Positions 1-19,040 of a stretch of DNA of 64,000 nt are shown here, piece after piece. The DNA comes from an uncultured Muribaculaceae bacterium (GTDB lineage Bacteria; Cyanobacteriota; Vampirovibrionia; Gastranaerophilales; Gastranaerophilaceae), in the NCBI GenBank assembly GCA_964453315.1, contig CAYVSD010000003.1, positions 8,689-72,688 of the forward strand, written 5' to 3'. A program made the position numbers and the translations under genes. Each line of letters begins with the position of its first letter. Position 1 is the stretch's first letter. The notes under the pieces are model-generated. The model ran no database searches. It was not told where the DNA came from and saw only the letters and a list, made by a program, of their open reading frames with translations.

Positions 1-153
1 ATTACATAATTCAGTTTTATTATTTTCTACAACACTTTGCAAATCAGATTCTTCAGATTTTAAAACAAATTCACGTGTCGTGAAAAAAGCTTGCGTTTTT
101 ATTATCAAATCAGAACGCAAAATTTTTTTAGAATTAATCTCCTCAAAATAAAA
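1..153 (-). CDS. Partial CDS (N-terminus only, runs off the window); possibly YfiH/PgeF-like
   Basis: ATG at 153-151, four nt after the RHH gene stop. Translation MFYFEEINSKKILRSDLIIKTQAFFTTREF... stays open to position 1. The AFFTTR block resembles the N-terminal motif of YfiH/PgeF (DUF152) proteins, but this is a weak recollection. Confidence 0.3.
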
Positions 154-157
154 CATA

Positions 158-346
158 TTAACCGATTATATCTTCTAAAATTTGTGCATTACGGGAAGCA
201 TTTTCTTTTTGATTTTTAGATAATCTGCGCATATAATTTTTAAGAGCTTCTCTAATTAATTCACTTCTTGAAAGACGCTCAATATCAGCCAACCCATCAA
301 CCTTATTTAAAAACTCATCAGGCATTGTAACCAAAACTTTTGCCAT
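158..346 (-). CDS. Ribbon-helix-helix (CopG/Arc/MetJ-type) DNA-binding protein
   Basis: 62-aa ORF. MAKVLVTMPDEFLNKVDGLA...SRSELIREALKNYM shows the beta-strand plus two-helix RHH pattern. A near-consensus promoter lies just upstream. Confidence 0.7.
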   Translation of the reverse strand: MAKVLVTMPDEFLNKVDGLADIERLSRSELIREALKNYMRRLSKNQKENASRNAQILEDIIG

Positions 347-369
347 GTATTAACCCTCTTTTTCAAGAA

Positions 370-398
370 ATTATAACACATGTACTTTTTTATTTCAA
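370..398 (-). promoter_or_regulatory. Sigma70-type promoter for the RHH gene
   Basis: On the minus strand: TTGAAA (398-393), 17-nt spacer, TATAAT (375-370), about 24 nt upstream of the ATG at 346. Confidence 0.45.
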
Positions 399-404
399 TA
401 GATA

Positions 405-431
405 TAAAAAAAACGACTCATCAAGAGTCGT
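405..431 (-). terminator. Intrinsic terminator of the 477-aa gene
   Basis: Stem ACGACTC / GAGTCGT (413-419 / 425-431) with a 5-nt loop. On the minus strand it is followed by a run of 8 T (A-run 405-412 on plus). Confidence 0.55.
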
Positions 432-480
432 TGGAAAATCAATAGGAAAAAGGGAAAGGAAAATATAAGCTTTTTTAATA

Positions 481-1914
481 CTATGCGGTAGTTTTAAATG
501 TTCCGAAAGTATCTTGAACGTTTTTGGAAATAACTTTTTGTACAGCTTCCATTTCTGTATTGATAGCTTGTTCTTCAGTATCTAACTGTTTCAAATTCAA
601 TTCCAAACTCTTATCTTGTTGTTGTACAATTTCAAGTTTTGAATTAATATCCTGTACTTTTTTATCATATTGAGCTTGCTGATAATTGTATTCATTCAAA
701 GCATTATTATATGCAGCTTCATCTGTAACGGTATTTGTTGTTAATGTATAAGTAATTGCAGAAGTTTTATCAACATTTCCTTCTTTATCTCTGTCATATA
801 AAGTAATAGAGATATATCTGCCTGAAGAATCTCTTTCAGGAATTGCAGCCGGTGCATTAACAACTTCTTTTGTTCTTGTAGTTGAACCAATAGTATAACA
901 AGAAACAGTACCGTAATCACCGGCAAAATTTGTGCTTTCTACATCTTTTGCCTTATAAAAATAAGGTTTGTCAGTACCTGTTTGAGAATCTTTTACGTAT
1001 CTCACATACCATTGACCGTCTTTATCATTGTTGTTATATTTTTCATTTAATAAATATCTGTAAGCTTCTTCTCTGGAGAGTTCTGCTTCTTCAATTTCAT
1101 TTTGAGTAGTAATAGAAGCGACTTCGGCGGTAGTCAAAATATGTTTTTCGGTTACTGTATCATATACTTGTTTTGTATAAACAGTATTACCATTTTCATC
1201 TTCCTGAGCTACAACAAGTTGTGTTGCATATTCAGGATTGATTGCTTTTTCATCAAATATACCGATTACTAAATTTGTTAAATCTGTAACTTCTTCACCT
1301 TGTTTATTATAAAATTTATCATTTTCTCTGATTAATTCTTCTTGTACCTTTTTGTTTTCAGTATCATAAAGATAATATTTAAAATTAGCTATATCTTCAT
1401 CAGTACATTGTGCATAAGAAGTTTGAATACGTTTTTCATTAACGAAATAATTTCCGTCATCATCTTTTTGGACATCATAACCATTAAATTTATTTCCAAC
1501 AACAGGAACCATACCGGCATTACCAAGCAATCTTAATTGAGTATTTCCAATAAAATAACCTGCTGCAGTTTTATTTATAAAACTTGATGCAGCTTGTACA
1601 GGAGAATAATCATCTTCCCATTGTTGAACATAACTAATTAAATATGGTACATCATCTTCATTACGATTAGGATTAGCTAACATAGAAGTAACAGTATTAG
1701 TCATCGCACCATCATTAAATGTATAAGAAATTTTAGTATAACTATCGATAGACGGAGGAGTAGGAACAACCATGTTGCAAAGCTCACTGTAATAATTTGC
1801 AGATTCATTGGACAAAGTTGTTCTTTGTTGGTTAATTTGTTGTCCTTGGAATTCTACATTAGACTTTCTTGCTGTTAAACTAAGAAATCTTGCTTGTGTA
1901 GCTGCCATTCCCAT
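481..1914 (-). CDS. Hypothetical protein with conserved helical/coiled-coil termini and a variable core
   Basis: 477-aa ORF with its own terminator. The N-terminal segment (ATQARFLSLTARKSNVEFQGQQINQQR) and the C-terminal ~70 aa (LEIVQQQDKSLELNLKQLDTEEQAINTEMEAVQKV) look helical. No family recognised. Confidence 0.6.
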   Translation of the reverse strand: MGMAATQARFLSLTARKSNVEFQGQQINQQRTTLSNESANYYSELCNMVVPTPPSIDSYTKISYTFNDGAMTNTVTSMLANPNRNEDDVPYLISYVQQWEDDYSPVQAASSFINKTAAGYFIGNTQLRLLGNAGMVPVVGNKFNGYDVQKDDDGNYFVNEKRIQTSYAQCTDEDIANFKYYLYDTENKKVQEELIRENDKFYNKQGEEVTDLTNLVIGIFDEKAINPEYATQLVVAQEDENGNTVYTKQVYDTVTEKHILTTAEVASITTQNEIEEAELSREEAYRYLLNEKYNNNDKDGQWYVRYVKDSQTGTDKPYFYKAKDVESTNFAGDYGTVSCYTIGSTTRTKEVVNAPAAIPERDSSGRYISITLYDRDKEGNVDKTSAITYTLTTNTVTDEAAYNNALNEYNYQQAQYDKKVQDINSKLEIVQQQDKSLELNLKQLDTEEQAINTEMEAVQKVISKNVQDTFGTFKTTA

Positions 1915-2038
1915 GGTCTTTTTCCTTTCATTTTGTTTCCTTACTCAACATATCGGCAATTGTGTTGAATTACTTTAGAATTATTTGAAGAATATTAAGA
2001 TTTTGTAACAATACTTTTATTATATGTACGCATTGGGG

Positions 2039-2068
2039 TTGAAAAGATTAGAGAAATAGAGTTATAAT
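2039..2068 (+). promoter_or_regulatory. Candidate ssrA promoter
   Basis: TTGAAA (2039-2044), 18-nt spacer, TATAAT (2063-2068), about 30 nt upstream of the mature tmRNA 5' end. tmRNA precursors are 5'-processed. Confidence 0.4.
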
Positions 2069-2097
2069 ATTAAGTACAGCACATTTACAAAAATCAT

Positions 2098-2500
2098 GGG
2101 GACGTTTTGGATTAGACAGGACGTTTTGGTGAATATATGCGGCGAGTCGGAGCGCTGTTCTCCGTTACAAACGAGCAAAACAAATTAAATGCTAACAATG
2201 TAATTAAAGCAGACTTTTCAAGAGCAGCAGCAATCGCTGCCTAAGTCGAGCTTCTTAGCTACTTGTAAAGCCCAGCTTGCCGGTTTTATGAGTCCATTAT
2301 GCAAGCGGCAGTGTGTCACAGGCTAAGTAAACACATCAAGCTAACTTGGCAGAGTTTAGTGTTTCTCTCAAATAAAACCTTTGATTAATTTAACGGGTTT
2401 AGACATTTTCCTGAATTAATCGAGAAAAAAATTGCCTACACTCGTAGAAGTATATATTTTCCCGTTTTGGACGTGGGTTCGACTCCCACCGTCTCCACCA
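2098..2500 (+). ncRNA. ssrA: tmRNA (transfer-messenger RNA)
   Basis: 5' GGGGACG pairs with 3' CGTCTCC followed by ACCA, including the G3:U pair. T-arm is GTGGG-TTCGACT-CCCAC. Resume codon GCT at 2191 opens the tag frame ANNVIKADFSRAAAIAA with TAA at 2242-2244. Confidence 0.92.
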
Positions 2501-2543
2501 TTTAGTTCAAGATGCATAGCCTTGACCAAATAAAAACAAAATA

Positions 2544-2568
2544 AAGCCCGTATTATCGGGCTTTTTTG
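2544..2568 (+). terminator. Intrinsic terminator after ssrA
   Basis: AAGCCCG-tattat-CGGGCTT followed by TTTT. Confidence 0.7.
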
Positions 2569-2672
2569 ATGTACAAATTTTTCAGAGAGTGGTTTTCAAA
2601 GAATATCTCTGAATTTTCTACCTCAAATCTCCCCAAATTCTCTGTTTGCCTTTTACCTAGACCAAAAATGTA

Positions 2673-5000
2673 CTAACCATCAAAAAATTTATCATCCATT
2701 ATAAAAGTAGGATATAATTGATAATATGCATTTTTCTCTGCAATTTTTTTATAACGTTTTAATACGGTTAGATCATAATTTGTGTTATAAATATATTTTA
2801 CGCTTTTTCCATCAAATATACCTAAAACTCCATACCACAGAAGAAAATCTGTCAATTTATCCCAATCTTCTTTATCTATTCCTTCGTAGTTATATATATC
2901 ATTCAATAATTGTGTATCTAAAATTGATTCTCGACCAATAAACATAAATAAGGCATCTTTTACTTTAGGTAAAACATCTCGAATTTCTCGACTAATTTCT
3001 TGAATTATATCGTATGAAAATTGTCTTATACCTTCTAAAATATCATCTTCTAAAATTTTTTCATGACCTCTATTTATGGCAACACCTATACAATTTTTTA
3101 CGCAATCAATTAATGCCCTTGGCCTCATTAATGTTCTATCAACTATATATTGAAAGCTGTCTTCACCTTTTACAAGATTTACGCATATACTACTCCACAA
3201 GGATTTAAAGTCGCATTCCTCATTTAATTCTAAGCTATAATTAAGTCTTTTCTTAATTACTTCCGCTAAAGCCTCAGTATCAATCCAGTCAAGCAATACT
3301 CGAGCTTCTTTACCTCTATCTGGAGTATAATCAATTAATAATTCATATACATCATTTCTTAAAAATATAACCGCTTTACATTCAACGTCCTTATTACTCA
3401 ATTGTTGTTCAATTTTTCTTGATGCATCCAGTAATGTTCTTACAATTATTAAATCTTCTTTAGATAAACCATCTGTATTCCAACCTTTATCTATATTATC
3501 AAATAATATCCATACACTTTCTTTATATTTCAAATATTGTTGTAATATATTTTTTAATTCTCCAATGCTGTGCTTATATATGATTTCTGTCACTTCGGCA
3601 TTAGATAATCTGACATTTTTCTTATCTCCAAATTTTATTTTAATTTTATCTATTATGCTATTTGTTATATATGAGAGTCTTTCTGAAAAATCTCCCTCTG
3701 CAGAATAATCACCACTTTGGTATATTCCCAATAATTTTGGATATAATTCCAATAAATCTGGATTTCTATAGTATATAAGTTTATCTTTTTCTAAGATTTT
3801 ATATGCAATCTCTAACAATAATACATATTCCCAAAACGCAGTGAGAGTATGATTATATGTTCCCTCTTGCATGCAAGTAGTAATTGTCTCCTTGAATTTT
3901 ATTAGTTCATAACTTTCAGGTTTTAAATCTAAAACAATATTTCGCTTATTTTCTCGCAATTTATTTCTTACTTGTGAGAATAAAGCTGTTTTACCCGATC
4001 CTTTTCGACCACAAACTATTCTTGCTTCACCTCGTAAAACTCTATTGTATTGATCTGTTTTAAAATAATAATTTGGCAAATTTCTAAATTCATTTTCCGC
4101 TGCAGATGAACCTAAATCAATTTCTTCTAATTTAGACTTTTTTTCTGTAATACTGTATGGTTTAGTTTTTTGCAAACTTTCGACAACATAATTTGCCATC
4201 TCAGAAATGGCTTCATCTATTTGGGAATCACTGAGACATTCTTTAACTACTTCACGTAAATCTAAAGATACATCACAAGATTCGATTTGAAGTATAGATA
4301 TATTTTTATTCATACCCATTGCTAAACCTGCAATAAAAGATGCACGGATATTATGATTAAAGGAATCGTTATAAATTTCTGGCAACCAAGATACAATAAT
4401 TCCAATCGAATTTGCAACTTGTTTAATTACATCTGTAGGGGACATTCTATATGTTTCTTCAGGATCAAAACTTCTATAAAATATTTTAGATTTTTTGATT
4501 CTTGAAGCTATTCTTATACTTTTATTTGTTTTGCAAAGACTATCAAGCAAAAATATCGGAGCTTCATTATTGATTTCATTTTCATCAAAACGCAAATTTG
4601 TTCTATGGTTTACAGAATTTATACATTCTAGAATATTACTAGTATTTGAATACTCTGTATATCCTATAGTATCAAAAATTCCTATATCTTTTATCTTTTC
4701 TTTTGTTGTTTCATTTATTGCTTTATTGCTTACTAATATTATATTTTTTCTTTTCGCAATTGCGTATCCAATTTCAAAAACAACATTATTATTCAAAACT
4801 GAAATATCTGCAATAAAGTCTTTCGAATTTTCAATTGCTTCATACACTTCTTGATTAATACTATTCCCCAATATATTAAGTTGTGACCAAGTTCTTATAG
4901 GGATATTGGATTTAACGCTATTCAAAGGTTCCAATGTTTCGCCAATAATACCTGGGGATGAAGCATATGCAATAAAATGATATTTCTTTTCTTCAACCAT
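2673..5000 (-). CDS. Two tandem nucleoside 2-deoxyribosyltransferase-like (TIR-like flavodoxin-fold) domains fused to a P-loop NTPase
   Basis: 775 aa. Domain 1: FIADISVLNNNVVFEIGYAIAKRKNIILV, the NDT-like 'aD...N.NV.fE.GyA...K' pattern. Domain 2: IGIIVSWLP...HNIRASFIAGLAMGMNKNISIL. Walker A is CGRKGSGKTALF and Walker B-like is VWILFDNIDKGW, followed by a long helical C-terminus. Confidence 0.6.
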   Translation of the reverse strand: MVEEKKYHFIAYASSPGIIGETLEPLNSVKSNIPIRTWSQLNILGNSINQEVYEAIENSKDFIADISVLNNNVVFEIGYAIAKRKNIILVSNKAINETTKEKIKDIGIFDTIGYTEYSNTSNILECINSVNHRTNLRFDENEINNEAPIFLLDSLCKTNKSIRIASRIKKSKIFYRSFDPEETYRMSPTDVIKQVANSIGIIVSWLPEIYNDSFNHNIRASFIAGLAMGMNKNISILQIESCDVSLDLREVVKECLSDSQIDEAISEMANYVVESLQKTKPYSITEKKSKLEEIDLGSSAAENEFRNLPNYYFKTDQYNRVLRGEARIVCGRKGSGKTALFSQVRNKLRENKRNIVLDLKPESYELIKFKETITTCMQEGTYNHTLTAFWEYVLLLEIAYKILEKDKLIYYRNPDLLELYPKLLGIYQSGDYSAEGDFSERLSYITNSIIDKIKIKFGDKKNVRLSNAEVTEIIYKHSIGELKNILQQYLKYKESVWILFDNIDKGWNTDGLSKEDLIIVRTLLDASRKIEQQLSNKDVECKAVIFLRNDVYELLIDYTPDRGKEARVLLDWIDTEALAEVIKKRLNYSLELNEECDFKSLWSSICVNLVKGEDSFQYIVDRTLMRPRALIDCVKNCIGVAINRGHEKILEDDILEGIRQFSYDIIQEISREIRDVLPKVKDALFMFIGRESILDTQLLNDIYNYEGIDKEDWDKLTDFLLWYGVLGIFDGKSVKYIYNTNYDLTVLKRYKKIAEKNAYYQLYPTFIMDDKFFDG

Positions 5001-5049: not shown

Positions 5050-6666
5050 TTAATTATTTGAAACATTTATAAGTTGCTGCAAACTTAGTATTTCTGCTTG
5101 TGTCCCATTAAGAATGTGTTCTGTTAAATCAGGTGAAATGTATTTGAGGTTCAGGATATTTCGTATATATTTTGAATCTTTAAGGTTTTCTTCTTTTTGT
5201 AAATCTTCAATTGTTTTGCCATTGTGAATTTGCTTATGGTAATAATAGCTTTTTACAAGTGCATTTACCAAATAAGGATTTGGTTCAGGTGTATCGTTTT
5301 CTTTGGCATTAAGTATAAGAATATTTCCAGTCTTCGAGGGTTGAGAAATCCTTATCGATTTCTTAATTGTAATTGGTTCAGTATCTTTCCTTTGAGGAAT
5401 CAACATAATTTTATTGCCTCGATTTATAATTAATAATACCTCTCTTATATTCTTTGCATCATAAGTTATTTCAACATTTTTATCCGAAACAACAACTTTG
5501 TTTACTACAGATCTTATTAGTTTAGGGTTTTCGTAATCTTCGATAGTTTGGGCAACCTTTAGAAGTTCAATTTGTTTATTAACATCAAAGCCAGAAAGCA
5601 TTTTTTGCATCTGCTTTTTATTTTGTAAAAGTTCTTTGGTGGTTAAAATCACAAACTTTTCAATTTCTCCGGCAGGAATTTTAGAAACAGAACCTGCCGT
5701 TAGCTTACTGTATTTTTTAATAGCCTGACTTACATAATATCGGTAACGTCTTTTGTGGCTTGTGCTATGTGATGGCGTCATTTTGTTACCTTTGTCGTCA
5801 AATATCATACCTGTCAATAAAGAATTTGAGGAACATTTTGTTCCGCAAATTTTATCAACTTTGTTCTCATACAACAATTTTTGCACTCTTTCAAAAGTAA
5901 TTTCATCAATAATACCTTTATGTTCACCATCATAAACATTGTCTTTATGTACAATTTTACCGATATAAACTTTGTTAGAAAGCATATGGTACAACTGTCC
6001 TTTAAAGAAATATTTATCTGATTTGGTTTTAATATTTTCTTTCTCAAGCCAATCTTTTAGTTTTGGAACACTCTTTATTTCCAAATACTTATCAAAAATT
6101 AGTTTGACCTTTTGAGCATCTTTTTCTTCTATAACAAGTTTTTTATCTTCTTTCTTGTAACCAAGCGGAGTGCAACCACCCATCCACATCCCCTTTTTCT
6201 TTGATGCAGCAATTTTATCCCGAATTCTTTCTCCGGTAACTTCACGTTCAAATTGCGCGAAAGACAGAAGTATATTTAATGTTAACCGACCCATTGAAGT
6301 TGTGGTATTAAATTGCTGCGTTATGGATACAAAGGAAGTTTTATGTTTATCAAAAATCTCAACAATTTTTGAAAAATCCATAAGTGAGCGTGTTAAACGG
6401 TCAACTTTATAAACAACGACAATGTCTATTTTATCGCCTTCAATATCTAATAAAAGCTCTTGAAAAGCCGGACGATTCATTGTTCCGCCGGAATAACCAC
6501 CGTCATTGTATTCTTTTTCAATAAGCATCCAACCCTCATGCATTTGGGATTTTATGTAAGCTTCACAGGCTTCCCTTTGAGCATCAAGAGAGTTAAAATC
6601 CTGCTCCAATCCTTCTTCGGATGATTTTCTTGTATATATTGCACAACGAATTTTTTTCTTATCCAT
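5050..6666 (-). CDS. Large serine recombinase (resolvase/invertase catalytic domain plus recombinase extension)
   Basis: 538 aa. AIYTRKSS (catalytic Ser region), VVYKVDRLTRS, and E-helix FAQFEREVTGERIRDKI. The long C-terminal extension is typical of large serine integrases. Confidence 0.85.
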   Translation of the reverse strand: MDKKKIRCAIYTRKSSEEGLEQDFNSLDAQREACEAYIKSQMHEGWMLIEKEYNDGGYSGGTMNRPAFQELLLDIEGDKIDIVVVYKVDRLTRSLMDFSKIVEIFDKHKTSFVSITQQFNTTTSMGRLTLNILLSFAQFEREVTGERIRDKIAASKKKGMWMGGCTPLGYKKEDKKLVIEEKDAQKVKLIFDKYLEIKSVPKLKDWLEKENIKTKSDKYFFKGQLYHMLSNKVYIGKIVHKDNVYDGEHKGIIDEITFERVQKLLYENKVDKICGTKCSSNSLLTGMIFDDKGNKMTPSHSTSHKRRYRYYVSQAIKKYSKLTAGSVSKIPAGEIEKFVILTTKELLQNKKQMQKMLSGFDVNKQIELLKVAQTIEDYENPKLIRSVVNKVVVSDKNVEITYDAKNIREVLLIINRGNKIMLIPQRKDTEPITIKKSIRISQPSKTGNILILNAKENDTPEPNPYLVNALVKSYYYHKQIHNGKTIEDLQKEENLKDSKYIRNILNLKYISPDLTEHILNGTQAEILSLQQLINVSNN

Positions 6667-7111
6667 TGGCTACTCCAAAGAACTTTTTACCGTTCCAATG
6701 AGTACCGGTTATGACATTTGCAACCGCAGAAAGAGTTTTATATGTTTGATCTTTGTATTGAAAACCGTTTTCTACGGCAGTTACTTCATATTTTTCACCT
6801 TTATATTCGCGGATAAATTTTGTACCAAAGGTTACTTCAAAATTCCTGATCTTTTTAACATTGATTGACTTTGTTTTTTCGTAATCGCTAACAAGCAAAT
6901 CCAGTTTATGTTGCAGGTCATTGGGCAAACTTTTATACTGTTCTTGCCAAACAATCTCCTTAATTAGGTAAGATTTTGTGTAACCTTTAGGGGCAGAATA
7001 TCCAAAAACTTGCAGATATTTTTGTTCAAGTTCTTGTTTTGATAGAGCTTTATAATCAATAATTTTAACTTGCATACTCACATTAATCGCTCTTGTAGCA
7101 AGCTTTTTCAA
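6659..7111 (-). CDS. DUF2924-family protein (frequent partner of large serine recombinases)
   Basis: 150 aa. The C-terminus YKTLSAVANVITGTHWNGKKFFGV matches the DUF2924 signature (SLSaiA..ITG..WsG..FFG). It overlaps the recombinase start by 8 nt. Confidence 0.7.
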   Translation of the reverse strand: MKKLATRAINVSMQVKIIDYKALSKQELEQKYLQVFGYSAPKGYTKSYLIKEIVWQEQYKSLPNDLQHKLDLLVSDYEKTKSINVKKIRNFEVTFGTKFIREYKGEKYEVTAVENGFQYKDQTYKTLSAVANVITGTHWNGKKFFGVANG

Positions 7112-7140: not shown

Positions 7141-8733
7141 TTATGGATTAACAATTAATTCATCATAAAATTCCTGCAGGTGATTTTTATATTTTTTCAA
7201 TTTCCTGATTACGCGAACAATAATTTGCCTAATACGTTCTTTTGAAACACCATACATTTGTCCAATTTCATCAAGTGTCCATTGAGTTCCATCTTCAAGC
7301 CCATAACGTAGTTTTATAATTTTGATTTCTCTCTCTGACAAGGCTTTTTCCAAAATAGCATTTATTCTTGTTTGTAATTCATCAACTAAAATTTTATTAT
7401 TTTCTTTTTGACGATCAATGCTATAATTATCAAACTTTGTATGATCCAAATTATAAGCATCCTCAAGTCCTAAGGTACATGTTGGGGATTGAAATAATTC
7501 TTCAATTTTTTCTTCTGAAATACTTAATGCATTTGCAATTTCTGCACAGGTAGGTTCTTTACTATATTCTTGAATATAATTGTCTTTGAAGATAAAAATT
7601 TTTCTAAATAATTCATTTATATGATGTGGATAATGAATCATTTTACCTTTATCAGAGATGGCTCTACTTATAGAATTTTTAATTAACCATGTTGCATATG
7701 TTGAAAATTTGTAACCTTTAGTATAATCAAATTTGTTAATTGCTTTTATTAGACCTATGTTACCTTCTTGTATTAAATCTGAGAATGATAGGCTTTTTCT
7801 ATAAATATATTTTTTAGCAATATTTATTACAAGTCTTAAATTGGCACAAATTAAAATATCTTTTGCTTGTTCTGATAATTCTGCATTATCTAAATCTTTA
7901 AAAAACATTGGTTCAAGATTTGTATCTAACATTGGGTATTTACATATTTTTTCCAAATACCAATATATTGAATTCTCAGTTAAATTACTTAATTGTTGAT
8001 TATATAAAGCAAGTAACTTTTCTAAGGAATATTTTCTTGCTGCTTCAATCAGTTCTTCTTCTACCTTGTCTATACCAAAATCTTCTTCATTTTGCAGATC
8101 GTATTCTTCTATATTAGAATAGGCAGTTTCTTGTTTTTGAGGAAGAGATTGCTCTTTTATCGTGGGGCTAAATATATTTTCGAGGCTAATTGTTTTAAGT
8201 TTTTTGATTTCGTTATCATCAATATTTTTACATTGAACCTTTATCATATGAACGGATTCTAAGACATCTTTATCCACATCTAATTTGTTTGGTCGTCTTT
8301 TAGTGTAAATTATATTTAAAAACGGGCCTGATACAATACTTATAATTGTTGGATAAAGAATTTGCTTATTAATTTCTGTAGCTATTTGTTTAAGTTCAGT
8401 ATCATTTAGCAAACCGTTTAATTTAATAGTGATAAATAATAAAGATTTTTGAAAATCTTCATCTGATGAAATGTTTAGAATTTTTTGAATATCCTGATTG
8501 GTTACTTGAAACAAAAATGCAGCATTCACCCAACGATTTATCATTGCTTTATTTTTATCAAGATTTGGAAAAGCACTTTCAAATGCTTCTATCGTATTTA
8601 GATTTGGAATACGTCTATTAGTAGGATAACCAAGAGATTCGAACAATAAAAATGAGTTTTCAACAAAATTATTGTTGAAATATAGAAAATTATTTAATAT
8701 ATTTTTTAATTTATCATTTGTAACTGTAAGCAT
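7141..8733 (-). CDS. Sigma-70 family factor (regions 2-4) with an extra N-terminal domain paralogous to the N-terminus of the adjacent methyltransferase
   Basis: 530 aa. Region 2: [41 protein letters not shown]. Region 4.2: [19 protein letters not shown]. The N-terminal ~190 aa align with aa 20-190 of the 1220-aa protein ([13 protein letters not shown] / [13 protein letters not shown]; AAFLFQV / AQFLFEL; [11 protein letters not shown] / [11 protein letters not shown]). Confidence 0.8.
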
Positions 8734-8741: not shown

Positions 8742-11700
8742 CTATATAGTATAATTATTATATTCCTGTTCGGACATTGAGAAGTTTGGATCTATGACCA
8801 TAATCTCATTATAAGTAAGCTCATAGAGTTTATAAATTATTGTGTCTATATTATCTTCTAAATTTTTTATATTTTGCTGTTTTATATTATCTATGTTTGA
8901 ATTTATATCTTTTAATATCTCTAAAATCTTATCAACCATTTTAATAATATTTTCTTGATTTGTTACTTCTTTTGGTAAAGGGAATGACTCTAATTTGGCA
9001 ACACCTATATCAACTCCAGTTCCTCTTTTTTTGCCATTTTTATAAAACCAATTTAATGCAAATTTAGAATTTAAAATTGCTAATATTGTTTTAATCGAAT
9101 AATCTGAATTTACTCGCATAGTAATTATATTTGAAGACATCCCAAAATAACAATTTTGTGTATCATAGCCTACTTTGTTTACATCAAACATAGAGGGTAT
9201 AACTAATTTTTCTTGTTCAAAGAATTCTTGTTTCCGTGGCCAATGCAAGTGAAACCATTTATTTGAGCCTTTTATAGTTTCTCTACGATTATCCATTATA
9301 ACTTTATACTTATACAAATGATTTTTTATATTTGGATAATTATCAATATTCACACAATTTTCTTTTGTTAAATATAAAAGGTATTTCCCATCAGATTTAT
9401 TATTTACAGAATATTTACTAATAGCATTCTCTTCCAAAAATAATTTAACAAATTTTTTTTCATCACTATTTAAATTTATTTTATTTAGCTCATCTTTAGT
9501 TAATACAAATACCCCAGCATTTAAATTAAATCCATATTTCTCAGAATTTTTTTTATTTATTTTGTCTGGATTTTGAACAACACCTTGTACAACATTACAT
9601 TGGCTTGATAATTGTATAAAATGTTCATTAAAGTTTTGATTTTGCTCTAATATAATTTCATTATTAATATAGATACTTTTATTGCTCAGAGGAACTGTTA
9701 GTTTATTTTCATTATCATCCTCTTTATTTATATACATAACATCGTTCTCTAATTTATGATATTGAAATATCTCTAAATCTTTTGAAATATTTTTACGGTA
9801 TGTCGCAATCATGTGATAACCAGCGACATTATCAAAAACTTTTAATTTTCCAATGTCTACAAAATCTACAAATGATAAATTTTCTTTTACATCCATTATA
9901 AGTTTTTTTGCACCTGTGCTATTCAACCAATATCTTGATGTTATAAAGGATATTGTGCCATTATATTTGGACAATTCGATTGCTTTATGTAAGAAATAAT
10001 ACCAAAAATCCATCTTTCCTTGATGATATTTTTTCCCAAATACAGATATATTTACGGGTTCAAATACTTCTTTATGGTCTCTTTCTTTTAAATATGGTGG
10101 ATTGGCAATAATAATGTCAAAGCTATCAACATTAAACATCCATTTTGGATTAAACCATTCAGAAGAATAATCTTTATCATAAGGGCTCCATTGGGCAAGT
10201 TTTGCAGCTTGACCTAAATCAAGATTTAATATAACTGCTTCCTGTTTGATTTGTTCTCTTATTTTTTCATCTTGTGTTTTTAGATTTTCTTTTCTTTGGC
10301 TTGTATTTGCCCTAAAATACCCCTCTCTTATTTTTTCTAATTTCTTTTTGAGTTCTATAATTTTAGGTGCTTGTGCAAACAAATTATTTTCATTCAAATC
10401 TATCAAAGTATTAGCCGCAACGAATTTAGTTTCAAGGTTCGGAAGTGCCAAGATACCCATATTGTCTTTGTCCTTATCCACTTTTTCATCAACAATAAGA
10501 GAAATAAAAAATCTTAATCTTGAAATTTGTGTTGCCATTGGCTGAATATCAACCCCATATATGCATCGTTGAATTAAGTATAATTTTCTTGAATAGTCCA
10601 TCTCATTGTCATTGAACTGCTTTTCAATGATTTTAATTGCTTCTTCTCTTGCTTCTATATCATCAATTTGGCTTGCTTTGTCTAGTTGGGATTCTTTCCA
10701 CTTCTCATTGTGAGGATCTAATTTTGATAAGACATGAACTAATTTATGCAATAATCCCATAGGGAAAGCACCAGAGCCACATGCAGGATCTAAAATTTTA
10801 ACTTCATTTACTGCTTTTATCAGTTCATCAACTTCTGTTTCATTGAATGAGTGTTGCTCAGAATAAGACAAAAGTTCCTCTAATTTATCGTCAATATTTT
10901 CAATATTTAAACTTTCCACCTTAGTTTTTAAGTAGTTGATTAAAGATTGTTCACACATATAATCAACTATTTCACGAGGGGTATAATATGAACCTGTAGA
11001 TTTTCTCGCGGTTGTTTTTGTTTCAGGGTTGTGTGCAGCAAGTAAATTTTCAAAAACACGTCCCAAAAGTTCAGGATCTAATGCAATTTCTTCTTCCACA
11101 GGTGTTGTTTCATCAATAGTGAATTTATATGAGTTTAATATTGTAAATAAACCCTTAACCTTAGCATTTTTATAACTTCTATTTCCGTCAAAATGTTCAG
11201 ATAAATCAACAACTTTTTCATCTTTCATAAAGAAAATGTCATCAGGAATTTTTAGGAAGTTTTTGGAATCATTGTCGGTAAAGCAATCTATATATCTGCC
11301 ATTCCTTTTTTCATCCGTACATTCAAACAACCCACCATTCAAGAATGGTATATCCTTAAACAAATCAATTATATCTTGTGGATTATTCAGATATTTTCTA
11401 TAACGGAATAAATTATTTACATCATAGCCTGCATTTAAGTTATTATATCTATACTCTGGTCTAAATTCTCTTCTATCCATTGGTTTTGACAAACAACCAA
11501 AGAATAAATTTTGAAGTACAACTTTATAATACAAATCTCCTTGTTCTCGGTATTCAGGTTTTAACAGGTCTAAATAGGTCTGTTTATCAAAAACTTTTTC
11601 ACTAACTAAACCTTTTTCTTTGATAAACCAATCAAAGATAATTCTTGTAACCATTCTAATTCCGAACATTATATTATCTTTGTGGGTGTTGTCTTTCGAT

Positions 11701-12404
11701 AATTGGCAAGTATCTATCATCCAGAAAAACCAATTAGAAAGTTCTGTATAGAATTTTTTGTTTAATTCAGATACACTTAGTGCTTTCAACCAATTTAAAT
11801 GCAAATCAACAAAATTTTCTACTTTTAGATTTTTAAATGCAATATCTTCTAAAATATCAATATGTGCTCTGTGAGGATTACTAAAATTTATGTCCTTAAT
11901 CAAAACAACTTTTTCCAATACATCTTTATTTTCATCTTTTTTGTTTAAACGTCTGTCAATAATAGAAAAAGTTAGCTTATCAGCATATTTAAACAATATA
12001 AAAGCAGGAATTGTACGAACTTTATTAACTTCTCTTGTAATATCTGAAAGTTGTTTTTTAGAATATGTATCACCTTTTAATTCAATAGCATAAAACCAAT
12101 ATGTCTCAATATCTTTATCATCGATTCTGCCACCTGTAATTTCTGTTTCCTCAGAATTTAAATCATTGGGCTGTAATTCAAACAAAAATTGTGCATCTTT
12201 CCAATGGGAGTATAATGCTTTATCTTCATTTAAGTTATTTAACAAGAAGCGACCTTTAAAATCTTCAATAGAACTAACTGCAATTTGTCTTTTGGTTGTA
12301 TATCCAAGTGTAGAAAATAGCTTTAAAGCTGATTCTAAAATGGTATTATGTCTAAATTTTAATATGTCTGATTTAATCTGTTGTTTTAGTTCTTTATTCT
12401 CCAT
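8742..12404 (-). CDS. Type IIG/IIL-like (MmeI/Eco57I-family architecture) fusion: PD-(D/E)XK-like N-domain + N6-adenine DNA methyltransferase + C-terminal specificity-like region
   Basis: 1220 aa. D98-x9-E108-x-K110 ([13 protein letters not shown]); motif [12 protein letters not shown]; Eco57I-family helix [19 protein letters not shown]; motif IV IIANPPY. About 430 aa follow NPPY. Confidence 0.8.
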
Positions 12405-15400
12405 TAATTTTCTCCATCAATTATCAACCAAGTAATAAGCTCAAAATCATCATCCGATTTAACTTGCTCATCAATAGTTGGAATTACTCCTCCCCTACCT
12501 TGAAATGCAGATACCATATTGTTTTGATAAAATTTTGTAATTCCGCTTACGGCAGATTTTAATAATTTACTATATAAATTCATACCCTCCTGTGTTTGAA
12601 TTTGCTCATTGAATTTATTACATAGGTCTACAAACGGTTCTTTTTTACCTAAACATAGAGCTTTATAAATATCTAAAATTTCTCTTGATCTTTCATATGT
12701 ATATAAGACTTCACCATCTTCTTTTACATACACTAAATAGTAAGGTTGCAATTTATTTAATTTTGAGTTTTCTGTCGATGAATTTTTCTGTTTTAGACAG
12801 AAAATAACTCCGCTTTGTGCTATTACTTGCCCATTATCGTCTTTATTAGGGGTCAAAGCACAAATTCCAATTGGCATATTTTTCAAATCATCTTTTCTTG
12901 TTTCCATGAAATTAAACAAATCGCTTTGGAAGTCTTCAAGAGAAAAATCTGACATATTTATATCTTGAATAGAGTTATCAGTATCTTCTAAAGGCTTTTC
13001 TTCAATAATTTTCTTCAATTGTTTTTCACGATATGTTAAATCTCGTTTGATAATTTCCTCAGGGTCTTGATCTTCCAACAAAGGATTGTCATCGGCAGTA
13101 GCCGATGCATCTGCCAAAATCATCCTGGCCTCAACTCTATTTCTTAATTGAATGTAGGATTCTAAATCCTCGGTAGGCCAAAAGCAAATCATTTGTATAT
13201 AATCATTTAAACTGCCAATCCTATCAATACGACCAAATCTTTGAATTAGTCGTACAGGATTCCAATGTATATCATAATTAACAACTGTATCACAATCTTG
13301 CAAGTTTTGACCTTCTGAAATACAGTCTGTACCTATTAAAATATCAATTTGATCATTCCCTGTTCTTTTTTCTCCAAGTTTTGAATATGGAGAAAAGTTT
13401 TCCAAAATATCATCAAAATTATTTAAATTTTTGTATGTAGATTCTGTATCTTTACCTGATACAAGTGCAATATTTATATCTAATGTGTTTTTTACATAAT
13501 CTTTTAAGCAATCGTACAAATATTTTGCAGTATCACTGTATGTAGTAAATATTAATAATTTTTTGTTGTTTTGTTTTGATTTATCAGTAATAATATCTTT
13601 CAATTCAGACAATTTTTTATCACGTTCTTTGGTAACAGTTCTTGCCATGTTGTAAATTTTTTCAACCTGAATCCTATCAATTAACAATTCCTTTTTCCAT
13701 TTCTCTACATCTAAATCTGCTAAACTATATTCCATTTTTTTACCAACAACAAACTCATTATCTGCTATTTCTTGATCGTCTATAAAATCATCAGAATAGG
13801 CATCATCAGTTGAAATTGTAGAGTTAGTTTTGTTTTGAATATATTTATCAATTAGGACAATTCTACTATCAATCTTATCTAAGGTATTTTTCATTGAGAT
13901 TGTGAAAGATGCAATAGAACTTTCAAGACGTTTTAGAAAACCCATTTTCATCATACCAATCAAATAATTTTCACGTTTTTCCTGCGTCATAGTTGTATCT
14001 TTTTTTGATTGATATTTCTCATGATTTTTTACAACATATAACGAAGGTCTAAATAAGTATAATTGGTATTTAAGAATTTCGTCATTTATCTCTTTATAAC
14101 TTGGGAATTTATTTTCAACATCTATTGATGGAGTCTTTGTTACAGGATTCTTTCGTTTAGGGAAATTTAAAGAACTCTCGTCTTTTAAGTTAATATAACC
14201 TGATTTAATCTGTTTTCTTGATCTTGCAATTGTTAATTCTTCCAATAGCTTGAAAAAATTAACATTTAAATTATTTAATAAGTCGTTTTTATTTCTGTTA
14301 TCATCTTTCGCCCAATCAAGATACTTCTTATTTGCAACTTTTATAGCTCCTTCAATACTAGGAATCTGTATTGATTCGGCAAAAGCCTTATCATCTCCCA
14401 ATGAAATAAAATTTATTTGGTTCTTTAAATCATTTAAGGAAGTATTAACAGGTGTTGCTGAAAGCATCAAAACCATTGGATGTCTTTCGCCGTTCTTAAT
14501 TATATCAAGTAATTTATCATAACGACTAATTCTTAAGATATTACCTTCTTTGTCAGTTTTACTACCAGTTGCATTTCTAAAATTATGAGATTCATCAATA
14601 ACAATTAAATCAAAATCATTAAATTTTATTTCTTTATCAATATCCTTAGCAGTCAACATTGATTGAGATAAAAACTTAATTCTTAAATTATCGTCCTGAA
14701 AAATATTTTTAGGATGAAATTCCTCATAACGTTTCCAGTTATTTTCAAGTCTTTTTGGTGCTAAAACTAAGCATCGAGTCTTACCTTTACATATTGCATA
14801 TTGAATAACACCTAAAGCTGTAAAAGTTTTACCTAAACCAACACTATCTGCTAAAATGCAGCCATTATATTTTTGTAATCTCCGCCATATAGAGTTGACG
14901 GCGTCTTGTTGGAATGGGTATAACATATTCCAAATTTTTGTTTGTGTAAATTTTTTATTTAGTTTTACGTCTTCAACGTCATTTGTATCTAATTTTTCTT
15001 CAAATAAATGGTATAACGTCTTATAATACACTTGTTCTGGCGAATTTTCTTTATATATTGCTTCTATATATGATAAAATTTCTTTCTTAGCATCTTCAGT
15101 ATTTTCTGTCCATAAGTCATTAAACCAATCTTTTAAATCTTTTTTGCCATTATCGCTATCAATAATGGTATTTAATTCGTAATTAGAACAATCATTGATC
15201 CCTAATCCACAAGTAGTAAAATTTGAACTTCCAACGATTGCGTCAACAACACGATCATTATGTTCCTGTTCAATATGATACATTTTACCATGTATTAAAG
15301 TTTTTTTATTATCTTTTTTGGGAGCTGTTCTAATTTCTATATTACTATTTTTTAGCCATTCATAACAGTCTTTAGCAATTTTATTTTGCTTTAATACATT

Positions 15401-15793: not shown

Positions 15794-16633
15794 CTATGTA
15801 AAAACAATATTCTGAGCTTGATTAAAAACCTGTTTAAACATTTCATTTTTATCTTCATTTTCAGATATAGCAAAAATTATATTTTCGAAGAATTTTTCAT
15901 ATTCTTCAGTGTATAAGACATCAAAATAGTATTGTATTACATCTTGTGTAAAATTCTTAATATAGTCCAAAACTCTTAAAATCAACGTTTTGTATCCATA
16001 TAAAATGGCAATATTAAACAAATTTCTTATTTTATTTTTCACTAGTATTTCAATCTCAGTACTTTTTGTTTCGGACACAAAATTATTTTTATAAGGTCCA
16101 GGAATTGAAATTATGCTTACTAAATAAGGATTTTTAAGAAGTTCGCAAGAAGAATTGCGAAAAACACAAACATTTTTACTTAATAACATGTAATTAGAAC
16201 AACAAGCCAATTCTCTATTATTTCTGTTATATTCATACATGTCGTGAGCTTTTGCCGAACATAATGATTTATATAAAGTGCTGTTTCGGCAAAATGATTC
16301 TTCTTGATTTCTTATGCCAGACCAAAAATTCCCTCCAGGGTTTGTTGCACTAGCAAAATTTAAAACCAAAGGGTTATCATAATTTTTTGCAGATTCCAAA
16401 ACATCTGAATTCATTACAACATAAGCAGGTTTATTATTTAAATCTTTTTTATTTTTCAATTTTGCGGAAATAACATTTGAAACAAATTCTAATGTTTTTG
16501 GGGTAAAAAGAGTAACTTGGCTGTAATTCTCTTTTGGTAATTGAATAATCTCCCCGTTTAATTCGTAATACCCAGCATCAGTAATCTTAATTGTTTCAAT
16601 ACCGATACTAATAAGTTCCTTTCTGCGTAACAT
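15794..16633 (-). CDS. TIGR02452-type (microbial PARG-like) macrodomain protein
   Basis: 279 aa. LVLNFASATNPGGNFWSGIRNQEESFCRNSTLY matches the NFAsa.nPGGG...G..aQEE.lCR.S.LY signature, with a GGG->GGN variation. Confidence 0.65.
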   Translation of the reverse strand: MLRRKELISIGIETIKITDAGYYELNGEIIQLPKENYSQVTLFTPKTLEFVSNVISAKLKNKKDLNNKPAYVVMNSDVLESAKNYDNPLVLNFASATNPGGNFWSGIRNQEESFCRNSTLYKSLCSAKAHDMYEYNRNNRELACCSNYMLLSKNVCVFRNSSCELLKNPYLVSIISIPGPYKNNFVSETKSTEIEILVKNKIRNLFNIAILYGYKTLILRVLDYIKNFTQDVIQYYFDVLYTEEYEKFFENIIFAISENEDKNEMFKQVFNQAQNIVFT

Positions 16634-16659
16634 ATAAACTCCTTAAACTTGAAACAAAT

Positions 16660-16959
16660 CTAATAGTTATAATATCCCTGTCTGTTGCCATTAAAATCGT
16701 ATACATTTACTCCCGTTCCATTTGATTTAGGAACTGCGTATCCTCTTGGATTTCCACTATTGTCATAAATTAAATTTGCATTTGGATTGTTTGGGCTGTT
16801 GCTCCAATTGAATGGACTATTCTTCCAGTTATTGGAACTGTTTTCCCAATTTGCCTCACTATTGTTCCAATTGTTCGGGCTGTTTTCCCATGTTGTGAAA
16901 GCTTTTGTCATTTGCTGTACTCCTATTAAAATTATTAAAGCAATTAAAATCTTTTTCAT
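16660..16959 (-). CDS. Small secreted protein with Asn/Trp heptad-like repeats
   Basis: 99 aa. Signal peptide MKKILIALIILIGVQQMTKA, then WENSPNNWNNSEANWENSSNNWKNSPFNWSNSPNN (NWxNSxx repeated about 5 times). Confidence 0.55.
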   Translation of the reverse strand: MKKILIALIILIGVQQMTKAFTTWENSPNNWNNSEANWENSSNNWKNSPFNWSNSPNNPNANLIYDNSGNPRGYAVPKSNGTGVNVYDFNGNRQGYYNY

Positions 16960-16972
16960 ATAAATCTTTTCT

Positions 16973-17941
16973 TTATAAAGCCAATAGTTCTTTCATAATA
17001 CGTGCGTGTTTTTTTGCTTTTTGAGTGTTGCCGAGTTTTTTATAACAGATTTCAAGCTTTTCGTGCGCTTTGTAGTTATAATCCTGTATCTCTAAAATAT
17101 TTTCAAAACAGTCTATAGCCTTTTTATAGTTAAGTTCGTTCATATATGCCATTCCGAGTTTGAAATATAATTTTTGAACATAAGAATGGTATGAATTTGA
17201 AGAATAAAGTATTCCCTTTTGTTCATTATAGTACTCATCTATATATTTATATGCCAAGTCATATTCACCATTATCAATAGCTTCATTTGCCAACTTCGCT
17301 TTTTGCATGCGGAATTTTGGCATCTTTATAATATCATTACGAGAATCTTCAACTCTTTTTATCCACGCTTGAACATTATTATTCTTTTTTATTTCTTTCT
17401 TTGCCAATAAAGTAGTAACAGGACTTGCGATTTTACAACCTAAAATATATATTCTTTTGTTATTTGCAAAGTAAGGCTCTGTATAACAATTTTCCTTTAT
17501 CTGCGAATATAAAATGTTATAGTCGTAATCAGTGTTATCGAAAATTTTTAAATAATTTATAGCCTCATCATAGTGACCTATAGTTTCTAATACAAAAACC
17601 CACGACAATTCTAAAAACTTAAAAGGAGTATTATTGTTTACAATATTCCTGTTTGTTGCAATATGTCCTGTTATATTGTTTCTTGTATAAATTTTATTTT
17701 TGTCCGAATTGTTTTGAATGTTATATAAAGTATTGTAATCAGGAAAATTATATACAAATATTACTTTATCTGAGCAAGTGTTAAAATATTTATGAGCATA
17801 TTGAATATTTCCGACACTGCAATTTTTAACTTTAATCGGTACCGTCATATACCAACTCAATAACAGAACACCGAAAACAGTTCCGAGTATAACAACCCGC
17901 TTTTTAAATAAATCTTTAATTCTTTGCAAAAAATCTTTCAT
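16973..17941 (-). CDS. Membrane-anchored TPR-repeat protein
   Basis: The ORF track extends to 18004. The ATG at 17941 has an AAGGGA Shine-Dalgarno and leaves the repeated operator-like motif (17989-18003) upstream. One TM helix (VVILGTVFGVLLLSWY). C-terminal TPR-like repeats (AIDCFENILEIQDYNYKAHEKLEICYKKLGN). Confidence 0.55.
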   Translation of the reverse strand: MKDFLQRIKDLFKKRVVILGTVFGVLLLSWYMTVPIKVKNCSVGNIQYAHKYFNTCSDKVIFVYNFPDYNTLYNIQNNSDKNKIYTRNNITGHIATNRNIVNNNTPFKFLELSWVFVLETIGHYDEAINYLKIFDNTDYDYNILYSQIKENCYTEPYFANNKRIYILGCKIASPVTTLLAKKEIKKNNNVQAWIKRVEDSRNDIIKMPKFRMQKAKLANEAIDNGEYDLAYKYIDEYYNEQKGILYSSNSYHSYVQKLYFKLGMAYMNELNYKKAIDCFENILEIQDYNYKAHEKLEICYKKLGNTQKAKKHARIMKELLAL

Positions 17942-17988
17942 ACAATATCCCTTTCTGTTCATTACATGAAAATTATAAAATATAACTG

Positions 17989-18003
17989 TGCCAAAATTGG
18001 ACA
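17989..18003 (-). promoter_or_regulatory. Operator/promoter motif copy 3 (TGCCAAaatTGGACA)
   Basis: One of three 15-mers fitting TGYCAA-N3-TGGACA. On the minus strand TGTCCA-N3-TTGGCA is followed 11 nt later by TATAAT. Confidence 0.4.
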
Positions 18004-18006
18004 CCC

Positions 18007-18981
18007 TTAAATTTGTTTAATTGCTTTATCTAAAAGTTCTTTATAAGTATCTTTCAATTCTTGCGGCTCAAGGATTTTTACATTTTCTCCCCAGCGGAAA
18101 AGGTGCCAGCAGATTTCATATCTCCCGCCTGCTTCAAAAGTAACGGTTGTTGTGTCGTCAGGATTAACCTTTAATTTCTGAGTTGGGTGCAAATTATAGT
18201 CCTTAATTGCGTCTTTGACATCCTTTGAAAACAACAGCTTTATCTTCATTGGTTTTTCCTGATAAACTCCAAACGAATTTTTTAAATAGTCCTTCAAGTT
18301 GAATTTTTCATCTTTGTCAAAATATTCATCCAAAACTTTTGGTTCTTTGATTTTGTGTAAAAGATAGTATCTAAGTCCTTGCTTTTTATCGTTGTAACCA
18401 AGCAAATATGTCTTTTCACCATAAATAATCCCATATGGTTGAATCTTTAATTTTGCGACTTCTCCTTTATTGTTTTCGTAGGTAAATTCAAGATATTTAT
18501 AGGATTTCAAAGCATCTGAAATAACATTCAGTGTATTAAAATTCATCTTGTATCTTGGGTGTTGACGAACTGCATAACCTTCAACTTCCAAAAGTGCTTC
18601 GACATCTGTTTCAACTGATTTCGATTCGTTAATCATATTAATTTTAGCCATTATTTCCGATAATAAATCACAACGATTCGTGTAATTTAGGTTTTTCATC
18701 ATAGATTTGCAGTTTTCAAGTTCTGCAATTTCTTCCGCGGTAAAAGAAATCATTTTATTTAACGGAGTTTTATTGAGTCGCCATTTTTTTATTCTAGAAA
18801 GAGGGTTTTCAACTTCTTCCATACTCGGGAAAAGTCTTTCAACAGCATCCTTCATACGGATTGCAGTTCGTCGTGAAACCTCAAATTCATCCATAATATC
18901 CTGAATTGAGAATCCCTGATAGCTATTTTGCATATCTATTGCAAGTCTTAAAATATCTTCAACACGGTCATATCTTGGCAT
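18007..18981 (-). CDS. WYL-domain transcriptional regulator (HTH-WYL-WCX architecture)
   Basis: 324 aa. N-terminal wHTH (FSIQDIMDEFEVSRRTAIRMKDAVERLF). WYL-like core (TYLLGYNDKKQGLRYYLLHKI). The C-terminal domain ends WGENVKILEP. Confidence 0.75.
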   Translation of the reverse strand: MPRYDRVEDILRLAIDMQNSYQGFSIQDIMDEFEVSRRTAIRMKDAVERLFPSMEEVENPLSRIKKWRLNKTPLNKMISFTAEEIAELENCKSMMKNLNYTNRCDLLSEIMAKINMINESKSVETDVEALLEVEGYAVRQHPRYKMNFNTLNVISDALKSYKYLEFTYENNKGEVAKLKIQPYGIIYGEKTYLLGYNDKKQGLRYYLLHKIKEPKVLDEYFDKDEKFNLKDYLKNSFGVYQEKPMKIKLLFSKDVKDAIKDYNLHPTQKLKVNPDDTTTVTFEAGGRYEICWHLFRWGENVKILEPQELKDTYKELLDKAIKQI

Positions 18982-19023
18982 AGTTAAACTCCTTTTTTAT
19001 ATTATGATTATAAGCTGTAACTA

Positions 19024-19038: not shown

Positions 19039-19040
19039 CA

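Follow-up and report, generated by a model that had tools for sequence, protein, structure and literature searches.

Why a complete sigma-70 factor should be encoded behind a domain otherwise carried almost only by restriction-type DNA methylases is the question raised by a 64,000-nucleotide (nt) stretch of DNA from an uncultured Muribaculaceae bacterium (Gastranaerophilaceae in the GTDB lineage), covering positions 8,689 to 72,688 of contig CAYVSD010000003.1 (assembly GCA_964453315.1) and referred to below as the window. The protein concerned, here called the head-sigma fusion, runs from a DUF4391-like head domain through an acidic linker into a complete sigma-70, and its gene stands behind those for a PLD-nuclease/SNF2-type helicase (PLD-SNF2) and for a methylase with the same type of head. 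Restriction-modification (R-M)-like motor nucleases are thought to find their targets via methylase-specificity subunits. On balance, the fusion probably serves as an alternative partner subunit in an ATP-dependent restriction-type enzyme made of two components. Such an enzyme commonly has a PLD-SNF2 gene beside a gene encoding a head, an N6-adenine methylase and a specificity domain, and the head is proposed to be the adaptor by which the subunit that reads DNA is coupled to the motor. In the fusion, a SigA/RpoD-like sigma-70 (a region 1.2-like part through to region 4.2, without region 1.1) would have replaced the methylase-specificity module behind the same head, so that the sigma factor, and hence RNA polymerase (RNAP) or promoter DNA, would be tethered to the PLD-SNF2 enzyme. 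Homology, domain architecture, the single origin of the fusion, its strict gene adjacency, the intact catalytic motifs of the partner and purifying selection are what the data show; that the head docks on the helicase-nuclease, that the fusion binds RNAP and that it has any role in defence is what we infer.

All sigma fusions examined, from eight lineages (the window; L008; L001/2/4-7; L011; L012/13; L014; L018-20; L021), sit in an array of head-domain genes directly after a PLD-SNF2 ortholog. In the window and L008, the helicase is followed by a head-methylase and then by a head-sigma gene, while in L001, L002 and L004-L007 the helicase (58% identical) is followed by two fusions in tandem, sigA (526 amino acids, aa) and sigB (704-758 aa). 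The helicase precedes sigB alone in L014, a 992-aa TPR-sigma protein across a 2-nt gap in L018-20, a 530-aa fusion followed by the L33-SecE-NusG-L11-L1 genes in L011, a 615-aa fusion in L013, and a 505-aa fusion in L021, where the helicase has 744 aa and lacks the PLD part. The L021 helicase gene starts directly beside a large serine recombinase gene that points the other way, and the shortness of its product may reflect an insertion or truncation event; in L012, L013 and L021 the PLD part of the helicase gene is not on the DNA examined. Of the eight lineages, the window and L008 alone have an intact methylase, and the DNA examined of five (L011, L013, L014, L018-20 and L021) contains none, the helicase-to-fusion gap in these five being 2-43 nt. 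As to sigma fusions lacking an R-M neighbour, an issue raised in a preliminary description of this locus made from the sequence alone, fusions without a methylase thus do occur, but none was found without a PLD-SNF2 gene upstream.

The loss of the methylase can be followed in L004 and L002, where the 225-nt gap between helicase and sigA holds a deletion scar. A 38-codon open reading frame (ORF) in this scar shares its first 30 residues exactly with the beginning of a P0002-like methylase, and the sequence that comes next aligns with the C-terminal ~43 residues of the methylase in the window (46% identity by tblastn, E 1e-8). Beside the scar, the helicase and both sigma genes are intact, so the methylase can disappear without damage to the other genes. 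A hidden Markov model (HMM) scan of six-frame ORFs found no other head-domain genes beside the fusions in the scarred and methylase-free loci, and a search for sigB remnants in the window and L008 returned none. The head-gene arrays behind one helicase are of the kinds methylase plus sigma, methylase scar plus sigA plus sigB, and sigma alone, and the PLD-SNF2 gene is the sole constant immediate upstream neighbour across otherwise unrelated surroundings. It is from this pattern, one helicase gene with one to three head genes bearing differing tails (methylase-specificity, sigma, TPR), that the head is read as an adaptor. The canonical pair, with the PLD-SNF2 gene directly upstream of the head-methylase gene, is also present on two annotated plasmids, from Parabacteroides and Planktothrix, and a PLD-SNF2 gene beside a Cj0031-like type II R-M gene has been reported in the same arrangement (PMC9881135).

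Pfam recognises Eco57I (8.2e-28), TaqI_C (2.2e-08) and DUF4391 (1e-05) in the methylase, which also has NPPY and DPACGSGAF motifs and matches the PADLOC REase_MTase_IIG models. In the helicase-nuclease, Pfam detects PLDc_2, SNF2-rel_dom, ResIII and Helicase_C, and PADLOC gives 'HKD+Snf2' at 7e-114; the predicted nuclease of the system is the N-terminal PLD/HKD domain of this SNF2-type helicase. Identity among the helicases paired with sigma fusions is 42-98%. The PLD HxK...GSSN signature is intact in every one whose N-terminus lies on the DNA examined, as are the SF2 motifs I, II, III and VI wherever the region is on that DNA, and the helicase-nuclease partner looks catalytically competent.

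The similarity of the two heads is well beyond what chance would give. BLASTP aligned aa 20-187 of the fusion with aa 19-193 of the upstream methylase (56/176 identities, 32%, E 2e-15), which bears out the alignment of the N-terminal ~190 aa with methylase aa 20-190 given in the preliminary description; all three blocks quoted there, and the AIELKG (methylase) versus TIKLNG (sigma protein) pair, fall within it. Scored by a family profile built from 150 members, the sigma N-domain gave E 1.7e-45, and the methylase head scored 336 bits by the family HMM. Pfam DUF4391 (PF14335) gave 20.1 bits (E 6.6e-4) on the sigma head, below the 29.9-bit gathering cutoff, and 30.1 bits, just over it, on methylase aa 1-270 scanned alone; many members of the head family have a precomputed PF14335 annotation. 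By these comparisons the sigma head is classified as a diverged DUF4391 relative, tied in through the family HMM. An exhaustive search with profiles of the two heads (E <= 0.001) yielded ~1075 representative proteins with the head, and the best 150 of these are nearly all ~1200-aa methylases, or truncations of them, with the domain at the N-terminus. A word-indexed protein search with the N-terminal 250 aa of the sigma fusion alone returned no match, and the fusion family surfaced only by the exhaustive profile search and a search with the full-length alignment. In the literature, DUF4391 was met in one enrichment table and in one apparent misprint for DUF7941.

The head had been described as a nuclease-like domain, catalytically dead in the sigma protein because the putative catalytic AIELKG of the methylase had become TIKLNG. 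The substitution is there, as noted, but neither the nuclease label nor its catalytic meaning is supported, with E present in 82/149 and K in 53/149 family representatives at these positions. Tests for a PD-(D/E)xK nuclease found no family-wide D...(D/E)xK motif and no match of the head to a known nuclease fold. The AF2 model of the sigma head is confident (predicted local distance difference test, pLDDT, 88.5; predicted template-modelling score, pTM, 0.85), with the element order alpha-alpha-alpha-beta-alpha-beta-alpha-beta-beta-beta-alpha-alpha. Foldseek found no match for it (best E ~0.01, template-modelling score <0.3 in PDB and <=0.37 in BFVD), a negative that leaves room for very remote similarity, and a PDB sequence search with the head profile was empty even at E 10. 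Residues kept in the methylase and all sigma heads (in methylase numbering, used for the head throughout) are G34, Y35, W68, L74, F75, Y102, L109, N127, R152, K155, D161, V162 and E164, and those near-invariant in methylases and gone from all sigma heads are R116 (now D/E), T123, R124, K165, D171 and PHRAH 177-181; the absence from the sigma copy of residues conserved in the methylase copies had been correctly seen. Such a split would be expected if all heads had one function in common and the methylase heads a further one of their own. Acidic mimicry of region 1.1 by the sigma-type head was considered and discarded, the mean net charge of this head being +2.2, like that of methylase heads, and acidity being confined to the linker.

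A search with the full-length fusion alignment found 17 clusters (90% identity) carrying head and sigma. Type A fusions have 505-530 aa (window/P0266, P0270, P0003, P0278, P0279), type B fusions 704-759 aa (P0267-69, P0271-75) and other fusions 615-795 aa (P0277, P0280, P0281), and one with a TPR insert has 992 aa (P0276). Tails on the same head thus extend to TPR repeats followed by sigma-70 (P0276) and to TPR repeats alone (P0136, 686 aa). A distance-based neighbour-joining tree built from the heads of 17 sigma fusions and 98 methylases groups the sigma heads in a single clade (99/100 bootstrap). The window methylase head is only the 26th-nearest to the window sigma head, with 15 of the other 16 sigma fusions and 10 methylases lying closer, and the preliminary description of the sigma head as a copy of the neighbouring methylase's domain is not supported on this account. 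From the clade and this rank it follows that the fusion appears to have arisen once, long ago, and not by local duplication. Stand-alone head proteins (P0182, P0156) were considered and set aside as uninformative, being fragments next to insertion sequence (IS) elements, or decayed genes. P0182, a 305-aa ORF on at least 24 contigs (L015-L017, cyanobacterial-type contigs), adjoins IS110-family transposase genes in 2/3 loci shown and is probably a piece of a broken methylase gene.

The fusion itself is encoded by one uninterrupted ORF starting with ATG. As had been stated, this start lies 8 nt after the methylase stop, the spacer GCAAAATT separating the TAG of the methylase ORF from the ATG of the fusion gene. 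An assembly or frameshift artefact had been raised as a concern; the cluster P0266 in the public collection is 100% identical to the window protein, its orthologs P0003 and P0270 are 77-80% identical to it, and all three occur on dozens of independent contigs, so that the fusion is no assembly artefact. Comparisons among the window, L008 and L004, three of them informative, gave ratios of nonsynonymous to synonymous substitution rates (dN/dS) of 0.12-0.19 for the head and 0.13-0.20 for the sigma part; purifying selection acts on both halves. The window head is at dS 0.28 from L008 and 0.83 from L004, and the window sigma part is nearer to L004 (dN 0.11, dS 0.80) than to L008 (dN 0.25, dS 1.6), which suggests a mosaic gene formed by recombination between the domain-coding halves. 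By tblastn, the window fusion found only ordinary sigma factors in phages and plasmids, with no match spanning at least 80% of the protein, and a scan of viral contigs and JGI metagenome contigs with an alignment of the N-terminal 270 aa (head and linker) gave no confirmed match.

The sigma part is complete, as the preliminary description had recognised, with Pfam matches to Sigma70_r2 (PF04542, aa 296-363, 3.9e-19), r3 (PF04539, aa 382-419, 2.9e-06) and r4 (PF04545, aa 464-514, 3.6e-17), a match to NCBIfam TIGR02393 RpoD_Cterm (3.9e-67) and, as best relatives among solved structures, SigA of C. difficile and B. subtilis over aa 253-514. Pfam r1_2 is silent on the window protein, yet the PDB SigA alignments begin at aa 253, before region 2, and type B fusions do match r1_2. 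There is no region 1.1, the head domain standing in its place. The core-binding motif and the aromatic melting residues, including Y430 and W433, are kept (residue numbers of the sigma part are those of E. coli), and region 4.2 reads KERIRQ against RERIRQ in E. coli. Judged by these residues, the sigma module looks competent. The linker (aa 189-255) has a net charge of -9 and an isoelectric point of 4.2. In the full-length AF2 model, the pLDDT is below 50 at aa 190-221 and the folded domains are strung on a disordered linker, with a pTM of 0.42; this low value and the disordered linker leave autoinhibition in cis, by docking of the head on the sigma part, unsupported.

In which direction an alternative partner subunit of this kind would work can be pictured in two ways. 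Either the sigma module would be a device targeting DNA or RNAP that loads the motor nuclease, or the motor nuclease would hold the sigma factor and release or activate it to switch on genes of the island. Free sigma-70 without region 1.1 can bind promoter DNA, and because of this a targeting device is mechanistically possible; most loci are without a methylase, which makes self-protection a problem for it. A more specific version, doubtful though conceivable, is that sigma-70 replaces the methylase-specificity module as the DNA reader of the PLD-SNF2 nuclease, so that promoter recognition on incoming DNA, by the free fusion or its RNAP holoenzyme, would load or trigger the nuclease, with tandem sigA and sigB supplying different promoter specificities. 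If this were true, it would amount to a methylation-independent, transcription-coupled form of immunity. More generally, the same head bears a complete sigma factor in eight lineages or more, the majority of which have no methylase, and if it docks on PLD-SNF2 the result would be a natural restriction-type nuclease wired to transcription, either for targeting or to raise a transcriptional alarm. Such docking would also give the uncharacterised DUF4391-like domain, present on ~1000 representative methylases, its first function, that of a partner-coupling adaptor, and would provide a portable two-gene module for studying the reuse of sigma domains beyond ordinary transcription initiation. The literature search found no description of a sigma factor with a DUF4391-like head or with a PLD-SNF2 enzyme as its partner, and no paper that joins sigma-70, Eco57I and helicase. 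The helicase-nuclease/methylase kind is already known; what would be new here is a restriction-type motor nuclease with a swapped partner.

Several points weigh against an alternative partner subunit. Gene adjacency is no proof that head and helicase bind each other; a sigma-loaded nuclease without a methylase has no evident way to spare host DNA; and the frequent serine recombinase neighbours may leave the fusion a role in the mobile element itself. The window sigma has W434L, Q437N and T440S at positions that read the -10 element. In the P0003-lineage sigA, whose loci also hold sigB, the -35-reading RERIRQ has degenerated to GESINQ, while sigB in the same locus still has RERIRQ; the two copies may divide the labour, or sigA may be decaying, and some fusion copies may no longer read promoters. 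The context sample comprises about a dozen distinct loci, all on low-GC (25-34%) metagenome contigs that probably stem from one narrow group of gut bacteria, and the census of the head domain rests on inspection of the best 150 of the 1075 representatives.

Other explanations account for part of these observations. The preliminary description had the nuclease domain of the adjacent methylase copied, inactivated and grafted onto the sigma factor, to serve as a decoy or regulator of the R-M enzyme or to read the same DNA feature. The homology of the two heads, the 8 nt between their genes and the loss from sigma heads of polar residues near-invariant in methylases (R116, R124, K165, D171, PHRAH) would agree with such a copy, but it is very unlikely: the scheme fails because motif conservation, fold, phylogeny and methylase-free loci all oppose it, in that the head has no nuclease signature and variable AIELKG positions, its fold matches no nuclease, the sigma heads form one clade from which the neighbouring methylase is distant, and five fusion lineages lack a methylase in the DNA examined. 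The system, moreover, already has a PLD nuclease. Nor are the five methylase-free lineages easily reconciled with a controller of R-M expression, in which the sigma factor would drive the operon and be titrated through its head by the helicase-nuclease or methylase as these accumulate, which would time methylase against nuclease expression in the manner of the C proteins of type II systems. Such a controller would suit a fusion gene in the same operon, just downstream of the methylase gene, and the common head could give feedback binding; it is nonetheless quite unlikely, as most lineages have no methylase left to time, two diverged sigma fusions share one locus (L004) and no specific promoter was seen, a scan for promoter and terminator consensus sequences giving background levels (94 sites found, 93.4 expected).

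A sigma factor of the mobile element, driving excision, transfer or prophage genes with the head as a sensor or dimerisation module, would make the helicase a neighbour by shared cargo only. Serine recombinase or resolvase genes do follow the fusion in the window, L004, L008, L019/20 and L021, Mu-like phage genes lie near the L002 and L008 fusions, the island abuts a transfer-messenger RNA (tmRNA) gene, and the sigma part looks competent. This explanation is unlikely in view of the PLD-SNF2 gene being alone constant upstream in unrelated settings, as beside the L33-SecE-NusG-L11-L1 genes of L011, and of the head being found otherwise almost only on the methylase partner of the same helicase family. 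The 17 clusters hold intact ORFs of 505-992 aa from many independent contigs, both halves have a dN/dS of 0.1-0.2 and AF2 folds each domain with confidence, which makes a functionless, decaying remnant or an artefact of assembly or frameshift barely credible, even with the -10-reading substitutions of the window lineage, the degenerate region 4.2 of P0003 and the truncated members that exist within clusters. A link between the R-M enzyme and transcription, also envisaged in the preliminary description, is still the most plausible reading.

With an alternative partner subunit as the preferred reading, the locus can be set beside known systems. Loci with PLD-SNF2 and an Eco57I/Cj0031-like type IIG-type methylase (PMC9881135; PADLOC 'HKD+Snf2' C3a139) have the same helicase-nuclease upstream, their second gene bears the same head, and the window holds an intact copy of the pair; the fusion, in contrast, has sigma-70 in place of the methylase and specificity domains, and five of its lineages do without a methylase. 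That no defence or R-M system with a dedicated sigma factor built in this way was known, as first stated, has to be set against MzaA of the MZA anti-phage system (NF041931, PDLC02203; present in NCBIfam and PADLOC), like the fusion a long, defence-listed protein with a C-terminal RpoD-like sigma. MzaA is the best NCBIfam and PADLOC match of the fusion, through the sigma part only (model 472-716 of 726), and the score of 242 bits stays under the 800-bit cutoff for membership; the N-terminal region of MzaA is unrelated to the fusion head, and no other MZA model in PADLOC matched the nine neighbouring proteins scanned. With type III and type ISP enzymes (Res/Mod; LlaGI/LlaBIII) the system here shares the logic of an SF2 motor and nuclease combined with a methylase-specificity DNA reader. 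Unlike theirs, the nuclease here is PLD-type and the modules lie on two polypeptides that would be joined via the DUF4391-like head, whose model matches none of their solved structures; the sigma variant is without a counterpart there.

The helicase and methylase give only partial matches to DrmD and DrmMI of class 1 DISARM, no neighbour has DrmA, DrmB (DUF1998) or DrmC as its best match, and a secondary match of the DrmA model (2.3e-21) on the PLD-SNF2 helicase covers the helicase region only. BREX-related type-2 systems (PMC12839542) combine an HKD-endoDNase and Swi2/Snf2 helicase, an N6-methylase, a DUF499 ATPase and DUF3780; they resemble the locus in having an N-terminal HKD nuclease on an SNF2-type helicase together with a PglX-like N6-methylase, and no sigma component is reported for them in the passages considered. 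No BrxC/PglY-type (DUF499) ATPase was found among the neighbouring proteins scanned with Pfam, PADLOC and NCBIfam. Finally, the fusion shares with SigA/RpoD regions 2, 3 and 4.2, preceded by a region 1.2-like part, and the core-binding and 4.2 motifs, and differs in the 190-aa alpha/beta domain and acidic linker that replace region 1.1, in the -10-reading changes and in its gene being part of a restriction-type island operon. It is 40-47% identical to sigma factors of 329-336 aa, the only named ones being from Candidatus Gastranaerophilaceae (42-43% identity).

Table 1. Features of the window and of the related loci referred to in the text.
Locus	Feature	Position	Strand	Evidence or remark
Window	Head-sigma fusion gene, 530 aa	7141..8733	-	One uninterrupted ORF, ATG start
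Window	Head domain of fusion, aa 1-190, DUF4391-like alpha/beta	8164..8733	-	BLASTP, family HMM, AF2
Window	Linker of fusion, aa 191-252, acidic, partly disordered	7978..8163	-	Charge, pLDDT
Window	Sigma-70 module of fusion, aa 253-525: region 1.2-like, then 2, 3, 4.2	7159..7977	-	Pfam, NCBIfam, PDB
Window	Head, Eco57I-type N6-adenine methylase and TaqI_C specificity domain, 1220 aa	8742..12404	-	Pfam, PADLOC, motifs
Window	Methylase head domain, aa 1-215	11760..12404	-	DUF4391, family HMM
Window	PLD (HKD) nuclease and SNF2-type helicase, 1097 aa	12404..15697	-	Pfam, PADLOC
Window	tmRNA gene, tag ANNVIKADFSRAAAIAA	2098..2500	+	ARAGORN, Rfam RF00023 137 bits
Window	Sll1717-family P-loop ATPase, 775 aa	2673-5000	-	
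Window	Large serine recombinase	5050-6666	-	Pfam; downstream of fusion
Window	DUF2924 protein	6659-7111	-	Pfam; directly downstream of fusion
Window	Genes upstream of helicase: PARG-type protein (279 aa), 99-aa ORF, TPR protein (343 aa), WYL-domain protein (324 aa), UvrD-type helicase (1017 aa)	15794-22094	-	
Window	Single ORF, 6432 aa	30888-50186	-	
L004	Fusion gene sigA (P0003 lineage)	10001-11581		
L008	Fusion gene	10001-11593		
L018	Fusion gene with TPR insert (P0276)	10001-12979		
L021	Region with the helicase gene (744 aa)	5-4060		
L004	Methylase deletion scar	9766-10000		
L002	Methylase deletion scar	9846-9974		
L002	Mu-like genes	13965-15012		
L008	Mu-like genes	21205-21593		

The surroundings of the fusion in the window are those of a genomic island (Table 1). 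The tmRNA gene is the probable edge of this island; a direct repeat of its 3' end that would mark the far edge was sought, and none was convincing. Between the tmRNA gene and the recombinase lies the Sll1717-family ATPase, whose N-terminus is weakly similar to nucleoside 2-deoxyribosyltransferases (18 bits, below cutoff). The UvrD-type helicase encoded upstream of the PLD-SNF2 gene has a C-terminal Cas4/PD-(D/E)xK nuclease. Macro-PARG and WYL genes likewise lie upstream of the helicase in L008, and L004 has a TPR protein and a UvrD/PDDEXK-Cas4 helicase of like size and architecture. The Mu-like genes of L002 and L008 (Phage_tail_S, Dam-type methylase, Mu-type transposase) are a few kb to ~10 kb from the fusions, and the fusion module may ride on or beside Mu-like prophages.

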